From positions 1 to 11,436 of the forward strand of contig JBBTED010000115.1 in assembly GCA_038042445.1 (NCBI GenBank): a DNA stretch of 11,436 bases, in the 5' to 3' direction. Shown in pieces: positions 1 through 11,436 of this stretch. The notes beneath the pieces were generated by a model. That model was not told the DNA's origin and made no database searches. It was given only the letters and a program-made list of their open reading frames with translations. Both the position numbers and the translations under genes were made by a program. The stretch comes from Candidatus Firestoneibacteriota bacterium. GTDB taxonomy: Bacteria > Oederibacteriota > D2-FULL-39-29 > JBBTED01. Numbering within the stretch: the first letter of the stretch is position 1; each line of letters begins with the position of its first letter.

Positions 1-1813
1 CATAACTATCTGAACTTGTTGTCCACATCTGCCATGCCCCAGGCTGCACTCCTTCTGTTCTCGACACTGCTACTGCAAACCGCTCCCCTTCGCTTTGTGC
101 TTGTACTATATTCCCTGCTACATCGTATAGCTCATAGTCAACCCACCAGATGCCTTTAGAGGCAGTAGCTCCTACACCATAATTCACCGTCATTGCGAGG
201 GCAGAACCCGAAGCAATCTCTATTGCCTGCTCCTGCGTTGTCACAACATTCCTATCTGGGTCTAAAATTGTGAATTTTACTTTGCTCGCATTCGCCTGCG
301 TCTCTCCTTCTACTTGATTATACTTCACTTCAACTGGCACGCTCATGCTTTCCCCTGGCTTCACTGTTTGTATTGCCTTCTCCGGCTCCTTCGCCCACGA
401 AATCATATCTCGCACTAACGCTATTTCCTCTGTTGATGCCTGACTATGCCCATAAGCCCAATCTGTATACATTGATGACACCACTACCTTGCCCTCACCA
501 TACGAATACATCAACATACTCGGATACAAGTTCTTCGTTCTTCTCAGCAACACTGTTGCATCCCCTGGCCACTTCGTAAAATACCCGTCCACATTCACAT
601 TCGGTGTATTCGTTGTTTGCCCCGCAAACATCGGATGCTCTGTTGTAATTGACACACTCGCATTCTGACAGTTCTGATCCTCCAACCAACCATAAGCACT
701 TATCTCGTCCCCACAAGGCAACACATTGAAATCATATCCGTGTTGTTGTGAAAACACCACAAGTGTTCCTCCTGCCTTCACATACTCCTCAAGCTGTACC
801 TTGAAAAAATTTGAATCACTTAAACCATATAATCCACCACTTGGTATTACTAATATCGGCTGATTGCCTGCTATATCTGAGGAAGAAAAATTTATAAATA
901 TTTCCCGCACAGGTTCTGGAAATGTATTAACAAGATTATTGCTTGAACTACTATAACCAGTTTGTAGAATTGCTACATCAGCTACTGTTTCATACTCTTG
1001 CCAAAATAATTCTTGATTACTACCAAAACTTATATATAACTTGGAAATCTGCAATTCAAGATTATTAAGATAACTCTGATTTGCTATTGAATTATCTGGA
1101 AGATTTTCAAAATATGTATTTCTTTCCTCTACAAGCTTTAAAAATTTATAGTAATTTATAACGTTAATTTTATTCTTCTTTACTGCAAGTCTGTAATATG
1201 TATCATCTAAATTTATTGCTGCAAAATTACTGTCTGCTACAGAAAATGTCTCATCAGGATGACCTCCACCAGGACCAAATGCTGAACCAACACCAGCTAT
1301 TCCACTACCACCTGTAGCACCACTTTGAGGCTTATAACCAGTAAGAGAATTTAATGGATTTAGGAACGTTCCATTTTTGCGAATTTCAAAATGTAGATGA
1401 TGCCCAGTAGATCGTCCTGTGCTATCGATTTTACCTAATTCTTGCCCTTTGTCAACTCTAACACCTTCTGTTATTTTTCCATTAATACTTTCTAAATGAG
1501 CATATACAGTTTCATAACCATCACTATGTTTAATAACAACAGCTTTACCATAAGTAGTACTTTCAATTTTATCATAAACTTTAATCACTTCTCCACCTAC
1601 TGATGCATAAGCATTTTGCCCTTTAATTAAACCTGCTGATTTACCTACGATATCAAGCCCATTATGTGGATCAGGTTTTGGTTGCAATGTCCTTGAATAA
1701 TATTTGAAATTAGTATCTACAGGATCTCCAAAATCAAGTGCAAGCACCTTGTTATATACACTAAATATCAGTAAAAAAAGAACACTAATAATTTTTATAC
1801 TCTTGGATTTCAT
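1..1813 (-). CDS. Large exported multidomain protein, 3'-truncated by the window edge: signal peptide, M23 family Zn metallopeptidase, Gly-rich linker, class I glutamine-amidotransferase-like domain, Ig-like domain
   Basis: Not in the ORF track because it has no stop in the window. Hand translation from ATG 1813 (alternative 1816; AGGAGG at 1819-1824) gives 604 sense codons to the edge: MKSKSIKIISVLFLLIFSVYNKVLA (signal peptide), then PHNGLDI...YGKAVVIKHSDGYETVYAHL...GVRVDKGQELGKIDSTGRSTGHHLHFEIRKNGTFLNP (M23 HxxxD and HxH motifs, ~1345-1670), GATGGSGIAGVGSAFGPGGG, then PILVIPSGGLYGL...QLEEYVKAGGTLVVFSQ...HPMFAG...YSYGEGKVVVSS...ALVRDMISWA (GATase-like pattern, ~385-980), then VKFTILDPDRNVV...GIWWVDYELYD. 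Confidence 0.92.
   Translation of the reverse strand, partial: MKSKSIKIISVLFLLIFSVYNKVLALDFGDPVDTNFKYYSRTLQPKPDPHNGLDIVGKSAGLIKGQNAYASVGGEVIKVYDKIESTTYGKAVVIKHSDGYETVYAHLESINGKITEGVRVDKGQELGKIDSTGRSTGHHLHFEIRKNGTFLNPLNSLTGYKPQSGATGGSGIAGVGSAFGPGGGHPDETFSVADSNFAAINLDDTYYRLAVKKNKINVINYYKFLKLVEERNTYFENLPDNSIANQSYLNNLELQISKLYISFGSNQELFWQEYETVADVAILQTGYSSSSNNLVNTFPEPVREIFINFSSSDIAGNQPILVIPSGGLYGLSDSNFFKVQLEEYVKAGGTLVVFSQQHGYDFNVLPCGDEISAYGWLEDQNCQNASVSITTEHPMFAGQTTNTPNVNVDGYFTKWPGDATVLLRRTKNLYPSMLMYSYGEGKVVVSSMYTDWAYGHSQASTEEIALVRDMISWAKEPEKAIQTVKPGESMSVPVEVKYNQVEGETQANASKVKFTILDPDRNVVTTQEQAIEIASGSALAMTVNYGVGATASKGIWWVDYELYDVAGNIVQAQSEGERFAVAVSRTEGVQPGAWQMWTTSSDSY
189..220. repeat. Half of a GTCATTGCGAG...CGAAGCAATCTC palindromic element, in frame within the CDS
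   Basis: The sequence gtcattgcgagggcagaacccgaagcaatctc has paired ATTGC/GCAAT and GGG/CCC arms and reads EIASGSALAMT on the coding strand. The termini match, from my recall, a widespread bacterial palindromic repeat family. Confidence 0.65.
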
Positions 1814-1822
1814 CATAACCTC

Positions 1823-2983
1823 CTAATAAACTTGATAATAAAGAATTTTGTGTTCCTCGTATATATGCACTAATAGATATTTACCATCTTTTGTAAGAAA
1901 TATACCAACTCTACCATCAGTATTAATCACTCCCGCAGACATTTCTAATAATTTATCTTCCTGAACATCAATAATAAACAGATTATTATTTAACATATCT
2001 CCTACTTTTTTACCTACAACCACTACAAATCGTCCATCATAAGACAGCTCCAGTAAATAAGATGTTTCACGAATTGGAGATTTTATCATAGATAAAGCAG
2101 CCTGAATAGAATATTCTTTTATAGTAGCTTTCTGTGGCAGATTCATAAGAGTAATTTTATCTGTATAAAGCATTAATAAACTTTTACCATCTCCAGAAAG
2201 AACTCCAAAACCTTCAATTACAACATTACCATTTTTATCATAAACCATACCGTTATGCCTTATTTCTGAATAATTATAAGGACAGATAGATATATAATTA
2301 GCATTTTCTGAAATTGATACTATACCTTCAGTATATGGCCTCTCCCATAACATATTCCCAGATTTATCAAAAAGACGCAATTTGTAAAAGGGATTACTAG
2401 AAAGTGCAATATAATTAGAATCAGGAGAAAAAATAATGTTGTCATCACCTGAGTTATTACTATAATTCCACAATATATTTCCTATTGAATTCATTAATAC
2501 AAAGTCTCCTTCTGGGCCTTCACCAGCACCAGCACCAGCAGCAATTAGTTGCCCATTAGGTGATAAATACAGCATTCCTCCCACTTCTTTATTCCAAAGT
2601 TCTTTACCTTTTTTAGTGACATAATGCACTTTATGATTCCAACCAAATTCCTGTAAATTTATGTTATTATTCCAGACATATTCCTCTGTCCATGCAGTTA
2701 CATAAATAATATAATTGCCATCCTCAGAAATACCTATTTCAAGTGGTTGTCTATCTACTTTTGGTCCCCAATGAAATCTTTCATTCCCACCTTTATCATA
2801 AAGGATAATTTGTTTGCTCCATTTAGAACTTAAAATTATATCACCACTTACTCCTGCCATTTGCAAATCTGTAATCGCAAATGGCAGTTTTTTCTCCCAC
2901 AATAGTTTTAGTTGCAATGCCTCTGCTTTTATCGTAAACATCATAACAAAATTTATCACCATTACTATTATAGTCTTAAACAT
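1823..2983 (-). CDS. Secreted beta-propeller protein (WD40/YVTN/PQQ-like blades)
   Basis: 386 aa. N-terminal signal peptide ending in AEA. Repeated blade motifs: ISEDGNYI, LSPNGQLI, FSPDSNYI, ISENANYI, LSGDGKSL, LSYDGRFV, LTKDGKYL, plus G-x-x-LW motifs. RBS AGGGGG at ~2992-2997. Its TAG stop overlaps the RBS of the next gene. Confidence 0.85.
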   Translation of the reverse strand: MFKTIIVMVINFVMMFTIKAEALQLKLLWEKKLPFAITDLQMAGVSGDIILSSKWSKQIILYDKGGNERFHWGPKVDRQPLEIGISEDGNYIIYVTAWTEEYVWNNNINLQEFGWNHKVHYVTKKGKELWNKEVGGMLYLSPNGQLIAAGAGAGEGPEGDFVLMNSIGNILWNYSNNSGDDNIIFSPDSNYIALSSNPFYKLRLFDKSGNMLWERPYTEGIVSISENANYISICPYNYSEIRHNGMVYDKNGNVVIEGFGVLSGDGKSLLMLYTDKITLMNLPQKATIKEYSIQAALSMIKSPIRETSYLLELSYDGRFVVVVGKKVGDMLNNNLFIIDVQEDKLLEMSAGVINTDGRVGIFLTKDGKYLLVHIYEEHKILYYQVY

Positions 2984-6181: not shown

Positions 6182-6656
6182 AGTTTTCTATTGTTCCACC
6201 GGCTGCTTCTATTTTCTGTTTTGCAGATTTACTAAACTTGTGTATTTTTATTTTAAATGGTTTTGTAACATCTCCATCACCTAATAATTTTATACTTTTA
6301 GTATCTTTAATAAGACCACTTTTCAGCAAACTATCCGGTGTTATCTCTTCCAAACCAGTAAATTTTTTATCTAAATCACGTAAATTAACTATTTGTTGCT
6401 CCACTCTAAAAGGATTTTTAAATCCACGTTTTGGTGTCCTTCTAATAAGAGGCATCCTTCCACCTTCAAATCCTGGACTCCTGCTATAACCTGAACGAGA
6501 CTTCTGACCTTTATGTCCCTTACCACTAGTTTTGCCATGCCCAGAACCAGTTCCTCTACCTATCCTCTTTTTGTTTTTTTTAGCACCTTTATTCCATTTT
6601 AAATTTGAAAGCATATTCATACTTTCAGTTGTAGCTACACCATTACCATTGGTCAT
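6174..6656 (-). CDS. rplO: 50S ribosomal protein L15
   Basis: [26 protein letters not shown]...GFEGG...PKRGF. The start is uncertain: ATG 6656 overlaps the rpsE stop, and internal Met13 or Met15 are alternatives. Confidence 0.97.
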
Positions 6657-7126
6657 ATCTTTACCTCTTTTGTCTCTTCTTTTTTGAGCATTGACAATGC
6701 CATCATTGTAACCTTCACTAAATTATGTGGATTACTAGAACCTATACATTTTGTCAAAACATCAGTAATACCAGCAAGATCCATTATTGCCCTAACTGTA
6801 CTACCTGCTATTACTCCAGTTCCTCGTGAAGCAGGTCTTAAAATTATTTTTGAAGCACCGTATTTAAATTCAATTTCATGAGTAATCGTTGTTCCTTTCA
6901 TAGGTATTGGTATAACATTTTTTTTAGCATCTTCAATACCTTTTCTAATCGCATCGCCTATTTCATTTGCTTTGCCAAGACCAGTTCCAACATTACCATT
7001 TTTGTCTCCAACTACAACTACTGCACTAAAACTAAAACGTTTGCCACCTTTTACAACCTTTGCAACACGTTTTATCGAAACAGTACGTTCTTCAAACTGT
7101 GTATTCCCTATATCAATTCTTCTCAT
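6653..7126 (-). CDS. rpsE: 30S ribosomal protein S5
   Basis: [22 protein letters not shown]...GKANE...[12 protein letters not shown]. Confidence 0.99.
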
Positions 7127-7137
7127 AATTTTCTATT

Positions 7138-7205
7138 TATGGTCCGTATTTTTTCACCGGACTATAATGTTTTGTTTATGGTCTGTCTTCTTTCACCAGA
7201 CCATA
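7138..7205. repeat. Two tandem 29-nt hairpin units (7138-7166, 7177-7205)
   Basis: tatggtccg-tattttttcac-cggactata and tatggtctg-tcttctttcac-cagaccata, period 39. Same family as 8160-8268. Confidence 0.9.
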
Positions 7206-7220
7206 TTTTTTTACCTAATT

Positions 7221-7583
7221 TTAAAATTTTAGGCCCGCATTTCTTGCCGAATCAGCAAGTTCTTTTATGCGACCATGATAAAGATATCCAGACCTATCAA
7301 AAACTACTTTTATTATTTCTTTTTTTAACAATTTCTTTGCCATTAATTCACCAAGAGCTTTTGCAGCAGAAATATTTTTTGTACTGGTCAATTTTCCTTT
7401 TAACTCAGGAGAATATGTAGCACAACCGGTTATTACCTTCCCAGTTTCATCATCTACTGCCTGAACACTTATATGCTTTTGACTCCTAAAAACACATAAT
7501 CTCGGAACATTCATTGTTCCAAATATTTTCTTCCTTATTCTTATATGTCTTTTTTTCTGTGCAATTTTTTTATCAGTTTTCAT
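7221..7583 (-). CDS. rplR: 50S ribosomal protein L18
   Basis: RHIRIRKKIFGT..PRLCVFRS...VVFDRSGYLYHGRIKELADSARNAGLKF. Confidence 0.99.
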   Translation of the reverse strand: MKTDKKIAQKKRHIRIRKKIFGTMNVPRLCVFRSQKHISVQAVDDETGKVITGCATYSPELKGKLTSTKNISAAKALGELMAKKLLKKEIIKVVFDRSGYLYHGRIKELADSARNAGLKF

Positions 7584-7590
7584 TTGATAT

Positions 7591-8148
7591 CTATTTCCCT
7601 CCAGTACCTGCCGTAATTGCAGCTTTACCTACTTTTTTCCTTACATATTCATTTGTATATCGTATTCCTGTCCCTTTATAAGGCTCTGGTGGCCTAACTG
7701 CCCTGATTTTAGCAGTAAATTCACCAAGAAGCTGTTTGTCACTCCCAGATAAAGTTATTGCAGTCTGCTTCTCTACTTTTATTGTAATTCCCTGTGGTAT
7801 ATTAAATACTACTGGATGTGTAAAACCAACTTGCAAAGTAAATTTATCATTTTCAACAAAAGCTTTAAATCCTATTCCAATTATTGCTAATGTTTTCTGA
7901 AATCCCACTGTAACCCCATCAATCATATTAGAAATATTAGCTCTCGTAACACCATGTAAAGATTTATGGAGTTTATTCTCAGTTGGTCGTTTTACAAATA
8001 TTTTACCATCAGATATTGAAACTGTAATATCAGAATGTATATTATAGGTAAGTTTACCTTTAGGTCCATCAATTGTAATTAATTGACCTTTTATATCTAC
8101 TTTTACACCCGATGATATTACTATTACTTTATTTCCTATTCTAGACAT
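7591..8148 (-). CDS. rplF: 50S ribosomal protein L6
   Basis: MSRIGNK...GPKGKL...RPPEPYKGTGIRY..E.VRKKVGK. Confidence 0.99.
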   Translation of the reverse strand: MSRIGNKVIVISSGVKVDIKGQLITIDGPKGKLTYNIHSDITVSISDGKIFVKRPTENKLHKSLHGVTRANISNMIDGVTVGFQKTLAIIGIGFKAFVENDKFTLQVGFTHPVVFNIPQGITIKVEKQTAITLSGSDKQLLGEFTAKIRAVRPPEPYKGTGIRYTNEYVRKKVGKAAITAGTGGK

Positions 8149-8159
8149 AATTTTCTATT

Positions 8160-8268
8160 TATGGTCCGTCTTCTTTCACCGGACTATAATTCTTTCCCTT
8201 ATGGTTGGTATTTTTTCCACCAGACCATAATTTTTTGTTTATAGTCTGCCTTCTTTCACCAGACCATA
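8160..8268. repeat. Three tandem 29-30-nt hairpin units (8160-8188, 8200-8229, 8240-8268)
   Basis: tatggtccg-tcttctttcac-cggactata; tatggttgg-tattttttccac-cagaccata; tatagtctg-ccttctttcac-cagaccata. Period 40. Confidence 0.9.
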
Positions 8269-8270
8269 CT

Positions 8271-8660
8271 TCACCATATATAACCTATAATTTCTCCACC
8301 TATTTTTTTTGCACTTGCTTCTTTACCTGTCATTATCCCTAAAGATGTAGAAATCAAAACCGAACCAAACCCTCCAAATATCCTAGGGATTTCTCTATAC
8401 CTTTTGTAAATTCTTAAGCTTGATTTACTAACTCGCTTTATTCCAGCAATAACCCGTTTATTACCTTTTAAATATTTTAAAAATATTCTAATAATTCCGC
8501 CTTTTGCATCAGGAAGATGTCTATAATTTTGTATATATCCCTCACTCAACAATAGTTTTACTATCTCAAGTTTAAGCTTAGATGAAGGAATATCCACTTG
8601 TTCATGCAATTCCTTATTAGCATTCCTAATTCGTGTAAACATATCTGCTATTGGATCCAT
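8271..8660 (-). CDS. rpsH: 30S ribosomal protein S8
   Basis: MDPIADMFTRIRNA...PSSKLK...EGYI...ISTSLGIMT...IGGEIIGYIW. AGGGG RBS upstream. Confidence 0.99.
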   Translation of the reverse strand: MDPIADMFTRIRNANKELHEQVDIPSSKLKLEIVKLLLSEGYIQNYRHLPDAKGGIIRIFLKYLKGNKRVIAGIKRVSKSSLRIYKRYREIPRIFGGFGSVLISTSLGIMTGKEASAKKIGGEIIGYIW

Positions 8661-8689
8661 TCTTTTCCCCTTTTACTTACCAATACAAT

Positions 8690-8714
8690 GTGAAAAGTTT
8701 TTGATACTTTTCAC
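8690..8714. other. Perfect 9-bp inverted repeat (possible weak terminator, processing stem or binding site)
   Basis: gtgaaaagt-ttttgat-acttttcac, located 11 nt after the stop of the large ORF. The stem is AT-rich and has no clear U-tract. Confidence 0.5.
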
Positions 8715-8725
8715 CTAAAAAACTT

Positions 8726-11436
8726 TTATTTTAATTCTAAAATCAATAAGATTTTGTCTATTTTTACTTTGTCTTTTTCGGATTTGTGTTTCTTATCTTT
8801 TATTTTTACTGCATCTAAGCTTTTTATCCATACATCTATATGATCGTGTTTTTCATTTGCTATATCTGCTATCACATCTGCATCTGTGGATTTTATTGTG
8901 TACCAGCCTTCATCTGTTGGTGTTATATCTCCATTTATCTGATGCACATCTACCCATTTACCACCTCTAAAGCATTTCCACTTTCCGCCTTCCTTCTTCT
9001 GCTTCTCCATGCTCCATACCTCTATGTATGGATTTTCTTTGTCACTCGCTTCACTTCCATCTGCTTCATATTCTTGAATTTTTAATTTTACCACAACTCC
9101 TGTTATATTGCCAGTTATTTTCTTTGTGTTATATTTATATACTTTGTGATGCTCTTTTGGTCCTCCTATTGAACCTGTGCCTACTAAATCTCCTTCCATC
9201 TTTTTTGTCCATATCTTATACACCATCACATCTTTGCTTGCTTTGTTGTTGGTTGTATCAAACTCTGATATTGTATTATCTGGATTTACTTCTACATAAA
9301 TACTATGTGCTCCTGTTTGACTTGGATTCCATTCTACTCGTACTATTACTTCGCCACCATTTTTACCTATTAAATCTATACTTCCCTCTGCTATGTATAA
9401 TCCACCTTCTTCTGGGTTTCCATCGTAAAATCGTACTGATACATTCCTTGCATCCGTTTTTCCATAATTATATACTTTCGCTGTTATGTTTAATTCTGTG
9501 TTCTCAAATTCTTCATTTGGATATTCTATTGTTACATCTGATGCACTAATTGCTAAATCTGGTAAACTTGAACCATACGCAAATTGGACTTCTTTACTAC
9601 TTATTAAACCTTGTGCATTTAATTCTGCCTTAATTGTATGCCAACCTGCTTGCACAACTGGTATTGAAATTATCAATTCCTCTGTGCTTCCTGTCCATAC
9701 TATATTCTGACTATTTATATAATTTCCATCTAAATATATTGTTAATATCCCTTGTTCATTTTGTTTCCCATATAAAGTCACTTTTGCATCTACTGGCTCT
9801 GTTATTGTTGGATATTCTGTTTTATCTGTTGTTAATCCAAGTAATACTGCTTTGCCTACATCAAAACTCTTGGCTCCTGATACCAACAACATTTCACTAT
9901 TAGTATACATCGCATATATCAATCTGTGTATTCCTGTGCTTTCTGTAGATACTGTCCATGTATAATTAAATTTATTTTCTCCTTTTACCAAATATGTACT
10001 CTCATTTATTACTTCTATTGTTGTTTGATTTGGCTCTATTAACCACGCCTTTATTATCACTGGTGTTATATCGCTATTACTATTTGCACTTAAACTTAAT
10101 GTTACTTGTTCACCTATATTTGGCTCTACCTTATCTAATTTTGCCTCTAATATTTGAACCTGATACCCTGCTATATCTATTAGATATGTATAACTCTTTC
10201 CCGCAAAACTGTAACTTATTGTTTGCGTGCCTGCTATCATTTCACCCGGCAATACAAAACTTAATGTTGTTATGCCTGTAGATATTTCTATACTTTCGCT
10301 GTAATTTGGTCCTGTTATACTTATCGCTCCTGCTTCACTGCTTTCTATTTTTATCGTTACTGTTTCTCCATGATTATACACCTGCTTGTCTGTGGTTAAT
10401 GTTACAACATCCACTTTTTTCGGCACATACACTGAATCTAACCATATTGACCTACCTGTTTTAAAATATATTCCAAAACTTAATTTTTGCCCTGTATGTT
10501 TTACAGGTATTGATGCAAATTCTATTGTTTGAGTTCCACTATTTAGAACAAAATCCTGAGTTGATGCCCACTCATTAAATTGTGCATTGGCTTTTAATAT
10601 TATATCTGTTGCTTGCAATAAATTAGTTATTGTTAAATTAAGTCTTGCCTGCTCCCCTTCTATATAACTTTCCTTGTCTAAACTCGCTATAACTGATATT
10701 TTTATACCATTAACTTTGAAATTTATATCGTAACCTGTATCATTCAAATATACTTTACTCGTATAATTGCCGTCTTGTATATCCTCAGGAATTGTAAATT
10801 CAAATACACAAGAACCTTCTTCTCCAGAATTTAACCATACATATTTTGTCTGGTCTAATGCATCAAATATTGCAAATCTTACTTTTGCTTGTCCCTTTAT
10901 GTCACCTGTATTTCTTATATTCAAATTTACACTCGCCATAGCTCCTGCCAAAAATTCTATACCTGCTGGCAAATTCGTAATTTCAAACTTAGCTCCACTT
11001 ATACTAATTTGTTTTGTTTCACTTGCTATTACCTGCCCTGAATAAAGCAATTCTATTTTTACGTCAAACGTTCCTCCATACTGCGGCGTTATTGCAAAAT
11101 TATAGTTTTGTTCTGCATTAATTCCTAAATTCACATTTACTTCCTCATTCAAAAATATATTCGTTATTCTTAAACTACCCTCATATTCATTTATTCCTGC
11201 ATTTTTTACTTTTACTAATAATGGAAAACTTCCATTTGAAAATTCTCCTAAATTAACGCTCAACAATCCTTGATTATATTTCCCTACTTTAAAATTTATC
11301 CCTCCTGTTTCATAATATGTGCTGTAACCTACTTCGTAATTCCCTGACACCAAATTCTCCAGCACAAGATTATCACTTATGTTTTGTCCTGCTGATACTG
11401 TACAATTCACAACTTTGCTTATTATATTTTGCCCAT
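8726..11436 (-). CDS. C-terminal part of a very large surface/secreted-type protein with tandem Ig-like beta-sandwich domains and a CARDB domain; 5'-truncated
   Basis: The frame stays open upstream of GTG 11410 to the edge (...GQNIISKVVNCTV), so the protein is >900 aa. Recurrent domain starts: SLDKESYIEGE, TTDKQVYNHGE, KLDKVEPNIGE, TTDKTEYPTITE. CARDB signature LPDLAIS...ITAKVYNYG...VSVRFYDGNP...IYVEVNPDNTISEFDTTNNKAS at ~9230-9565. Confidence 0.88.
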   Translation of the reverse strand, partial: GQNIISKVVNCTVSAGQNISDNLVLENLVSGNYEVGYSTYYETGGINFKVGKYNQGLLSVNLGEFSNGSFPLLVKVKNAGINEYEGSLRITNIFLNEEVNVNLGINAEQNYNFAITPQYGGTFDVKIELLYSGQVIASETKQISISGAKFEITNLPAGIEFLAGAMASVNLNIRNTGDIKGQAKVRFAIFDALDQTKYVWLNSGEEGSCVFEFTIPEDIQDGNYTSKVYLNDTGYDINFKVNGIKISVIASLDKESYIEGEQARLNLTITNLLQATDIILKANAQFNEWASTQDFVLNSGTQTIEFASIPVKHTGQKLSFGIYFKTGRSIWLDSVYVPKKVDVVTLTTDKQVYNHGETVTIKIESSEAGAISITGPNYSESIEISTGITTLSFVLPGEMIAGTQTISYSFAGKSYTYLIDIAGYQVQILEAKLDKVEPNIGEQVTLSLSANSNSDITPVIIKAWLIEPNQTTIEVINESTYLVKGENKFNYTWTVSTESTGIHRLIYAMYTNSEMLLVSGAKSFDVGKAVLLGLTTDKTEYPTITEPVDAKVTLYGKQNEQGILTIYLDGNYINSQNIVWTGSTEELIISIPVVQAGWHTIKAELNAQGLISSKEVQFAYGSSLPDLAISASDVTIEYPNEEFENTELNITAKVYNYGKTDARNVSVRFYDGNPEEGGLYIAEGSIDLIGKNGGEVIVRVEWNPSQTGAHSIYVEVNPDNTISEFDTTNNKASKDVMVYKIWTKKMEGDLVGTGSIGGPKEHHKVYKYNTKKITGNITGVVVKLKIQEYEADGSEASDKENPYIEVWSMEKQKKEGGKWKCFRGGKWVDVHQINGDITPTDEGWYTIKSTDADVIADIANEKHDHIDVWIKSLDAVKIKDKKHKSEKDKVKIDKILLILELK

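Follow-up and report, generated by a model that had tools for sequence, protein, structure and literature searches.

Polymorphic toxins such as CdiA/CdiI and Rhs carry a variable enzyme domain at their C-terminus, with the immunity gene located immediately downstream, and motifs such as VENN and DPxGL bound their constant and variable parts. Another described arrangement is Tse1/Tsi1 from Pseudomonas aeruginosa's type VI secretion system (T6SS) where Tsi1 is described as a partial β-propeller that acts as a periplasmic immunity protein against a wall hydrolase (PMC3391265). Here we analyze a two-gene module from a Candidatus Firestoneibacteriota bacterium, encoded on a complete 11,436-base contig (G000:C115; GenBank JBBTED010000115.1) from now on referred to as the window. 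The module consists of a gene for an exported β-propeller (propeller B) followed by a translationally coupled gene for a very large exported protein (giant B) with an M23 metallopeptidase domain as its N-terminal head. With moderate confidence, we interpret giant B as an exported scaffold headed by an envelope hydrolase, with a head-specific upstream partner likely of the immunity or inhibitor type and with heads and partners subject to cassette exchange.

Like polymorphic toxins, the module combines a large exported scaffold with an enzymatic domain that varies from one close relative to another and is delimited by sharp breakpoints; further, a small cognate gene adjoins the variable end, a boundary motif is present and orphan cassettes are found nearby. 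A variable domain on a conserved scaffold and a demarcation motif are thus features of both, while the C-terminal and downstream polarity is not: here, the variable domain is N-terminal and directly follows a Sec signal peptide, with the co-varying gene on its upstream side. The scaffold, a GATase-like core followed by MG2/CARDB sandwiches, is also unrelated to filamentous haemagglutinin or RHS shells, and the partners are large (250-420 aa) exported propellers or tetratricopeptide repeat (TPR) lipoproteins for which neutralisation is hypothetical. Tse1/Tsi1 is similar in that a wall hydrolase is paired with a periplasmic all-β, propeller-like binder encoded by an adjacent gene. However, Tse1 is a small NlpC/P60-type amidase delivered via the T6SS and Tsi1 is a partial propeller encoded downstream (PMC3391265), whereas the hydrolase described here tips a giant Sec-exported protein and its partner is a full propeller encoded upstream.

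All genes of the window are located on the minus strand. Based on its open reading frame (ORF) and a structural model, propeller B is a 386-aa exported β-propeller with an N-terminal signal-like helix (1823..2983), while the giant B ORF covers the N-terminal 605 aa of the protein and is open at the contig end (2..1816). At the coupling site (1817..1825), read directly from the sequence, the letters are ...TAT TAG GAG GTT ATG ATG, so that the propeller stop codon TAG (1825..1823) overlaps an AGGAGG ribosome-binding site (1824..1819) and the first giant ATG at 1816 follows 2 nt past AGGAGG. The tight coupling of two signal-peptide genes that the sequence-only reading had described could thus be confirmed letter by letter. 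Its statement that the second gene runs off the window also holds: contigs from other public sequencing runs continue past position 1, and the giant B gene therefore truly extends beyond it. The closest full-length relative of giant B is P0064, a 3,067-aa protein that aligns from its aa 25 onwards, M23 head included.

Giant B begins with a signal peptide (aa 1-26, ending in ...KVLA and followed by LD; 1739..1816), called by eye from the translation together with a model helix spanning residues 4-25 and not by a dedicated predictor. The variable head, an M23 metallopeptidase domain, occupies aa 50-154 (1355..1669). It matches Pfam PF01551 with an E-value of 1.5e-24 and 86.4 bits against a cut-off of 28.7, covering profile positions 2-96 of 96. 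Members of M23 are defined by HxxxD and HxH motifs plus a third catalytic histidine, and the corresponding residues H51-N-G-L-D55, H107 and H140-L-H142 are invariant in all seven aligned M23-headed relatives (7/7). Both the profile cut-off and the zinc-binding and catalytic motifs therefore place the head in M23, although NCBIfam returned M23 matches below threshold only. Among solved chains, the M23 peptidases 3slu and 6muk come closest (E ~3e-13), and as in the LytM/lysostaphin-type members 3slu, 6muk and ShyA (6u2a), all zinc and catalytic histidines as well as the aspartate are present. Profile and motifs together establish the head, at the level of sequence, as a cell-wall hydrolase domain predicted to be catalytically intact, in line with the intact HNGLD and HLH motifs initially noticed. 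Known M23 enzymes are small autolysins, bacteriocins and phage tail proteins; no description was found of one that forms the N-terminal tip of an Ig-array protein longer than 2,500 aa.

The M23 head is followed by a Gly-rich linker (aa ~160-185), which ends in the junction motif GGGHPDETFSV (aa 183-193; 1238..1339 for linker and motif, from translation and motif search), by a four-helix domain (aa 205-278; 983..1204; pLDDT >90), by the GATase-like constant core (aa 281-475; 392..976; model and fold searches) and by the first Ig-like β-sandwich of the stalk (aa 483-582; 71..370). The AlphaFold2 model of giant B has a pLDDT >90 across aa 200-590. The sandwich, called from this model, has weak MG2/FixG_C matches (Pfam MG2, E 0.031). 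Translation, model and Foldseek and VIA-align searches thus agree with the proposed order of Gly linker, GATase-like fold and Ig-like domain after the M23 domain. MG2 and A2M bait-region-like sandwiches are also features of bacterial alpha-2-macroglobulins; unlike in those proteins, an N-terminal enzyme and a GATase-like core are present here, both foreign to A2M. An identity as bacterial alpha-2-macroglobulin was considered and judged unlikely, with no thioester family detected in the two giant-protein fragments of the window (the middle of the giants being unassembled) or, at E ≤1e-5, in 74 relatives.

The partner, propeller B, was modeled with high confidence (pLDDT 90.3, pTM 0.87) as an all-β protein of ~32 strands. 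Foldseek returned WD40-type propellers at E-values of 1e-13 to 1e-14 with query-normalised TM-scores (TMq) of up to 0.61, and the repeated four-stranded blades that define the β-propeller fold are present according to model and Foldseek. Although Pfam matches are marginal (PD40 with 22.2 bits against a cut-off of 20.9, DUF5711 with 24.7 against 26.3) and NCBIfam contains nothing for propeller B, the original assignment of the first gene as a β-propeller is upheld. The family comprises proteins of ~350-420 aa in 43 other clusters at 90% identity, none of which carries a name. Homologues are located directly upstream of six further M23-headed giants; the propellers found upstream of M23 heads exhibit 19-36% identity and a common C-terminal YYYQ[VIL]Y motif. 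No orthologue was found in any other of 98 genomes of the phylum, with the best partial match at 2.9e-12 compared with 7.8e-140 for self.

Giant B belongs to a very large family. At 50% identity clustering, a profile search with the core recovered 922 clusters for E ≤1e-3, 774 for E ≤1e-10 and 561 for E ≤1e-30, and a word-indexed search limited to proteins of 1,060-3,025 aa yielded 62 members. Full-length members, spread over many uncultivated phyla, are ~2,500-4,600 aa long and carry generic names such as 'hypothetical' or 'PKD domain-containing'. Named sources include metagenome-assembled genomes of Nitrospirota, Dehalococcoidia, Anaerolineae, Thermodesulfobacteriota, Elusimicrobiota, Thermoplasmata and Methanophagales, with Omnitrophota and Chloroflexota also represented; these are groundwater and sediment lineages, some of them archaeal. 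Within the phylum, the core was present in one of 40 relatives searched (G001, E 2.7e-37), and on this sequence evidence the module is sporadic in this lineage. G001, which belongs to the same class, encodes three consecutive large genes (G001:C82, L008, 1424-14927; 1,702, 848 and 1,856 aa), the third of which resembles the C-terminal giant fragment of the window and has NHL-like repeats at its end. No earlier description of the family was found in the literature searched, a search outside of which most subscription journals fall. Giant genes of Omnitrophota have been reported to encode proteins of >25,000 aa with C39/S8 peptidase N-termini and β-helix filaments (10.1101/2023.11.21.568195), and the present giants do not belong to them. 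They are similar in being very large exported proteins of uncultivated bacteria for which an attack on cell walls has been proposed; in the text available from the same report, 'M23' and 'macroglobulin' each occur 0 times and an upstream partner or head swap is not described.

Among 74 family members with a Met start and at least 150 residues ahead of the core, Pfam (E ≤1e-5) identified eight M23 heads, four thioredoxin, four PGAP1-like, four DUF6531 with RHS repeats, two Zn_dep_PLPC and one Amidase_3; the remaining members have Ig-type domains only or nothing recognisable in front of the core. Metagenomic loci contributed NlpC/P60 heads (E 5.1e-5, just over the cut-off) and Exo_endo_phos (EEP) heads (E 1.2e-15), and two further head classes show weak phospholipase C (PLC) matches. 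In the latter, an H-x3-D-x5-H pattern like that of zinc phospholipases C can be seen by eye, which we treat as a lead only. The anticipated diversity of N-terminal enzyme domains on a constant body was thus found, with M23, Amidase_3, NlpC/P60, PLC-like, PGAP1, EEP, thioredoxin and RHS heads. Regardless of head type, a motif of the PGGDHPDD.F.V type follows immediately, matched by a regular expression in 63/72 giants; a variant is visible by eye in eight of the nine negative giants, and the ninth has a miscalled start. Exactly two instances occur in this genome, one per module. In giants without a head, from now on referred to as headless, the motif stands right after the signal peptide. Identity breakpoints between relatives are located ~100-130 aa past the motif, at the start of the core.

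Heads were then compared with the genes upstream of the giants. A metagenome scan returned 79 loci, 70 of which had a callable giant start, and heads and upstream proteins were clustered separately by BLASTP and then cross-tabulated. In 61/70 loci, a same-strand ORF of at least 90 aa ends at most 150 nt from the giant start, often overlapping it, and the resulting table of head against partner is nearly diagonal. The largest head class (head0) is found with partner class p0 (~270 aa, weak CarboxypepD_reg and TPR matches) in 28/31 cases, PLC heads with p1 (~325 aa, no Pfam family) in 10/11, M23 heads with p2, the propeller family of the window, in 7/8 (window included) and NlpC/P60 heads with NHL propellers in 2/2, the latter two loci being near-identical. 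A signal peptide or lipobox is present in 26/28, 9/10 and 7/7 partners of the three largest classes, and a comparison of the partner classes revealed no common motif. The sequence-only reading had anticipated an upstream propeller each time. What stands is a coupled exported upstream gene whose type tracks the head, though often this gene does not encode a propeller: propellers accompany M23 (7/8), Amidase_3 (1/1) and NlpC/P60 (2/2) heads as well as two PLC-like loci, but the commonest (PLC-like) heads are paired with either a CarboxypepD_reg and TPR lipoprotein or the ~325-aa protein without a Pfam family.

Mapping head type onto a core tree (72 rows, quick IQ-TREE) required 16 changes compared with a minimum of nine. 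Three sister pairs differ in both head and partner: the two modules of this genome (WIN_A/WIN_B, support 100), L041/L078-79 (support 100) and L013/L018 (support 99). Within sister pairs, identity is 60-100% in the ~280-aa core but drops to ~20% across head and helical domain, and frequently across the tail too. As judged from these sequence comparisons, a different head on a closely related core is accompanied by a different upstream partner gene. Further, of 28 ORFs located second upstream, eight have homology to partner-type or head-type genes; among them are tandem partners, small PLC-like ORFs and one orphan partner from a different class. At L049 (7182-7787) and L016 (433-954), a small Zn-phospholipase-C-like ORF is located directly upstream of a headless or short-headed giant; in these loci the head is apparently made as a polypeptide of its own, unless the gene has been split. 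Tandem cores are present in some loci (L018, 4245-5084 and 8717-9490; L013, 1-400), that is, as arrays of giant genes, with the first 'giant' of L018 being only 790 aa long.

The genome itself provides one of these sister pairs, as it holds two paralogous modules, each consisting of an exported propeller gene followed by a coupled gene for a giant Sec-exported protein. On contig C12, the ribosomal protein genes rplC...rplX, rplE and rpsN are followed by a signal-peptide PD40 propeller (propeller A; Pfam E 2.4e-15) and then by giant A, which runs off the contig end. In place of M23, giant A carries an Amidase_3 head (E 4.4e-14) in its first ~240 residues. From giant B aa ~315 to the contig end, the two giants share 80% aa and 83% nt identity (window 853..1 and C12 8721..9573), with background identity upstream of this point. 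The four-helix domain (aa 205-278) has only 3-30% identity between A and B and thus varies along with the head, and propellers A and B are only distantly alike, the B-family profile matching propeller A at 1.2e-6. Between the two modules, the replacement is cassette-like. The segment shared with the C12 paralogue (1..853, from alignment and composition) is also a compositional island: here and in C12 (L003) 8721-9573, GC content is ~0.47 compared with 0.30 outside and 0.32 for the genome, and GC at third codon positions (GC3) is 0.44-0.48 compared with 0.13-0.20 (in the window, 0.44 compared with 0.13-0.16). The jump falls exactly on the A/B homology breakpoint, while the C-terminal fragments, at 0.33, resemble the host. 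Across 51 other loci, the GC3 excess of the core is slight (+0.065 over the head, +0.034 over the tail). An assembly chimera at the GC jump could be ruled out, with contigs from three other public runs (three studies) bridging position ~853 without a difference.

The core, which remains constant while heads and partners vary, adopts a class I GATase fold according to its model. VIA-align matched it to GH29/GH42-type middle domains (Z 16.5), ThuA-like proteins (15.7) and true GATases (~15) with a root-mean-square deviation (rmsd) of 2.6-3.5 Å over 171-194 residues, Foldseek identified GH42 at E 7.8e-9, and a search of the ESM Atlas agreed on the fold. The GH42, ThuA-like and class I GATase domains (5xb7, 1t0b) share this fold at Z 15.7-16.5 and rmsd 2.6-3.2 Å over 180-188 residues, and in GH42, as here, a β-sandwich follows the middle domain. 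Unlike in GH42, no glycosidase barrel is attached; unlike in GATases, the Cys-His-Glu triad appears not to be kept as such and the core has near-invariant polar residues of its own. Across 261 family members, Q357, D380, D410, Y437 and D452 are conserved in 260, C383 in 259, R426 in 255 and E379 in 250. The GATase-type His position (H457) is His in 139/261, and the next-but-one residue is Gln in 210/261. From this conservation, the lone Cys (C383) and the near-invariant acidic residues could be a catalytic or processing site, and the core may serve to oligomerise, as in GH42, to bind a ligand or metal, or to process itself at the junction motif. The L013 and L018 cores are 90-100% identical at the aa level yet only 83% at the nt level, which indicates strong purifying selection on the core; the same figures exclude recent gene conversion as the sole cause of its conservation. 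Neither Pfam nor NCBIfam contains a model for the core or the junction motif.

Based on these observations, the following mechanism can be envisaged. The giant is built, in order, of signal peptide, hydrolase head, junction motif, helical domain, GATase-like core and a long array of Ig-type sandwiches, and the head would be a warhead that degrades cell envelopes and is carried distally on the stalk. This warhead would attack the peptidoglycan of other cells, or membranes in lipase-headed relatives. Wall hydrolases, lipases, nuclease-like and redox domains are typical of interbacterial effectors, and it is this head list that leads us to propose a warhead. The upstream partner would be a head-specific binder in the periplasm of the producer, and propeller B would most likely keep the M23 enzyme inactive and so spare the producer's own wall during export, that is, act as a partner of the immunity or inhibitor type. 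New specificities may arise when a cassette of partner gene, head and helical domain is swapped against the conserved core.

Contact between head and propeller, as proposed at the outset, was examined by co-folding the M23 head (aa 27-165, alignment of 7) with propeller B (aa 23-386, alignment of 6). Three runs scored 0.57, 0.53 and 0.50 compared with 0.01 for the best of three controls, with at least 85% of contacts in common and a partner pLDDT of at least 81; the result was rated as 'weak support'. In the calibration set, the mark was reached by 116/157 solved complexes and 2/215 mismatched pairs, but the range of scores ≤0.60 holds only 18 of the 157 solved complexes and both passing mismatches. 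The predicted interaction is thus weakly supported, at 0.53 compared with 0.01 for the best control and within a low-scoring band. The co-fold makes contact of head and propeller modestly likelier and is silent on inhibition.

Several observations weigh against an inhibitor function of the partner or against the scheme as a whole. Giants without a head still have a coupled upstream gene, in 4/10 cases p4 with CarboxypepD_reg repeats, and the partner can therefore not be a head inhibitor only. The partner differs at one M23 locus (L042), and the independent events behind the co-variation are few: for M23 and p2, four independent contrasts gave three in the same direction, none in the opposite direction and one without change (sign test p 0.25), and three to four contrasts are too few for significance. 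The co-fold score lies in a band where wrong results outnumber right ones, except for pairings that were already probable in advance. In 9/74 relatives, the giant itself contains fused propellers (NHL, Reg_prop, PQQ), and the first large gene of G001 encodes a core, Big_5/Big_7 domains and a C-terminal Reg_prop-like propeller, with a HEAT-repeat lipoprotein upstream; fused propellers and G001 fit a structural or binding role as well as that of an antidote. Finally, no C-terminal sorting domain of the type IX secretion system (T9SS; Por_Secre_tail type) was found on the giant fragment at 8726-11434 (Pfam, E ≤0.1), and judged by this fragment the giant is no T9SS cargo; such a domain is present in one relative, P0077.

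Many of these points can be accommodated if the partner is an accessory subunit and not an antidote, serving as an export or assembly chaperone, an anchor, an adaptor or a target-binding co-subunit on the tip. The giant would then be an enzyme-tipped adhesin or an 'enzyme on a stalk' that scavenges envelope debris, with the lipoprotein adaptors of housekeeping endopeptidases as a parallel. The retained upstream gene of headless giants, the commonest partner class being a TPR lipoprotein with a CarboxypepD_reg-like domain, the propellers fused in giants and at the C-terminus of the G001 homologue, and a co-fold that indicates contact at most, would all be expected for such a subunit. A general export factor should, however, track the core, yet sister cores carry unrelated partners and the partner classes lack a common motif, and the orphan and tandem partner-like upstream genes are typical of immunity arrays. 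We regard an accessory role as the main alternative, though a less likely one. That the head opens the producer's own peptidoglycan for the passage of the giant or its structure, with the propeller restraining it in space and time as for the specialised hydrolases of flagella and secretion systems, appears improbable. It is true that both modules of this genome have peptidoglycan hydrolase heads and that both are located in or beside ribosomal-protein operons with no terminator detected ahead, suggesting constitutive, housekeeping-like expression. However, the PLC-like, PGAP1-lipase, EEP, thioredoxin and RHS heads borne by this scaffold are at odds with wall passage, the absence of the module from 39/40 relatives searched argues against a core function, and head swaps between near-identical cores would be unexpected for a housekeeping enzyme. 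Least probable is that the genes simply adjoin each other, with no link in function, and that the variable heads reflect ordinary domain shuffling. Large repetitive surface proteins often shuffle domains and the evidence assembled here is mostly comparative, but this explanation is disfavoured by the overlap of stop codon and ribosome-binding site, by the same propeller family at 19-36% identity directly upstream of seven of eight M23-headed giants, by the coupled upstream ORF in most loci and by a co-fold score far above the controls.

The genomic setting of the two modules can be partially reconstructed. The sequencing runs containing the window DNA are labelled as groundwater metagenomes, with no RNA run listed among them, and the bin comprises 2.81 Mb in 181 contigs at 90% completeness. 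In coding direction, the window encodes the 902-aa C-terminus of a giant, rpsH, rplF, rplR, rpsE, rplO, secY, adk, map, infA, rpmJ, propeller B and the M23-headed giant B. The C-terminal fragment (8726..11434, Pfam) belongs to a paralogous giant and consists of CARDB, A2M_BRD and MG2-like sandwiches plus an unassigned end of ~170 aa; it aligns with P0064 aa 1685-2301, has 87% aa identity with a twin at the end of contig C33 and is directly followed by rpsH (8660..8271). A 9-bp hairpin with a poor T tail at 8690-8714 (minus strand), just past the stop codon of the upstream giant and before rpsH, is the sole terminator-like site within 8100-9000. No terminator was detected between rpmJ and the propeller gene, and a promoter scan ahead of the latter yielded a site count not above that of shuffled sequence.

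In 13/13 relatives examined, rpsN is directly followed by rpsH, and the C12 module therefore most likely ends in window 11434..8726. On this gene order, module A (propeller and giant, >8 kb) appears to be an insertion into the spc operon that separates rpsN, at the C12 end, from rpsH; the insertion region comprises window 8661-8725 together with C12 (L003) 6517-7788. Module B follows rpmJ, where rpsM would be expected, and rpsM was not found in this bin. The fragment on C33 is a candidate for the end of giant B. Four contig ends (window 1 and 11436, L003 9573 and C33/L004 45345) break at two homologous positions of the paralogues, ...TTSSDSY and GQNIISKVV..., which suggests that the unassembled middle is near-identical in both giants and was collapsed or binned out. 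A tblastn search of the bin with the closest full-length relatives found no middle piece of either giant; side matches were an unrelated Reg_prop protein on C21 and a partial Ig-like ORF at the end of C118. The latter (C118 11777-12877) starts after an aminotransferase gene and is open at the contig end, and its last ~270 aa resemble the stretch just past the P0064 core at 36% identity; this ORF could be a fragment or else a third relative with a different start.

Returning to the interpretation of the giants as hydrolase-headed scaffolds with head-specific partners, we tentatively suggest that they could form a 'reverse-polarity' class of polymorphic effectors, widespread in uncultivated bacteria and some archaea, in which a Sec-exported stalk presents a swappable N-terminal warhead and a cognate upstream partner is exchanged with it, and in which the core and the PGGDHPDD motif may process or release the head. 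If true, this would represent a new architecture for arming microbes against their neighbours, in which a giant surface protein bears the weapon N-terminally and the safeguard gene lies upstream, and would open a first functional access to a very large family of 'hypothetical' proteins of 2,500-4,600 aa. The idea reduces to small pieces, namely an M23 head of 150 aa and a propeller of 360 aa. The core, some of whose residues are near-invariant over 261 members, is an unassigned domain for which a structure would be worthwhile, and the head and partner pairs would, if the proposed function holds, be a source of new hydrolase-inhibitor pairs.

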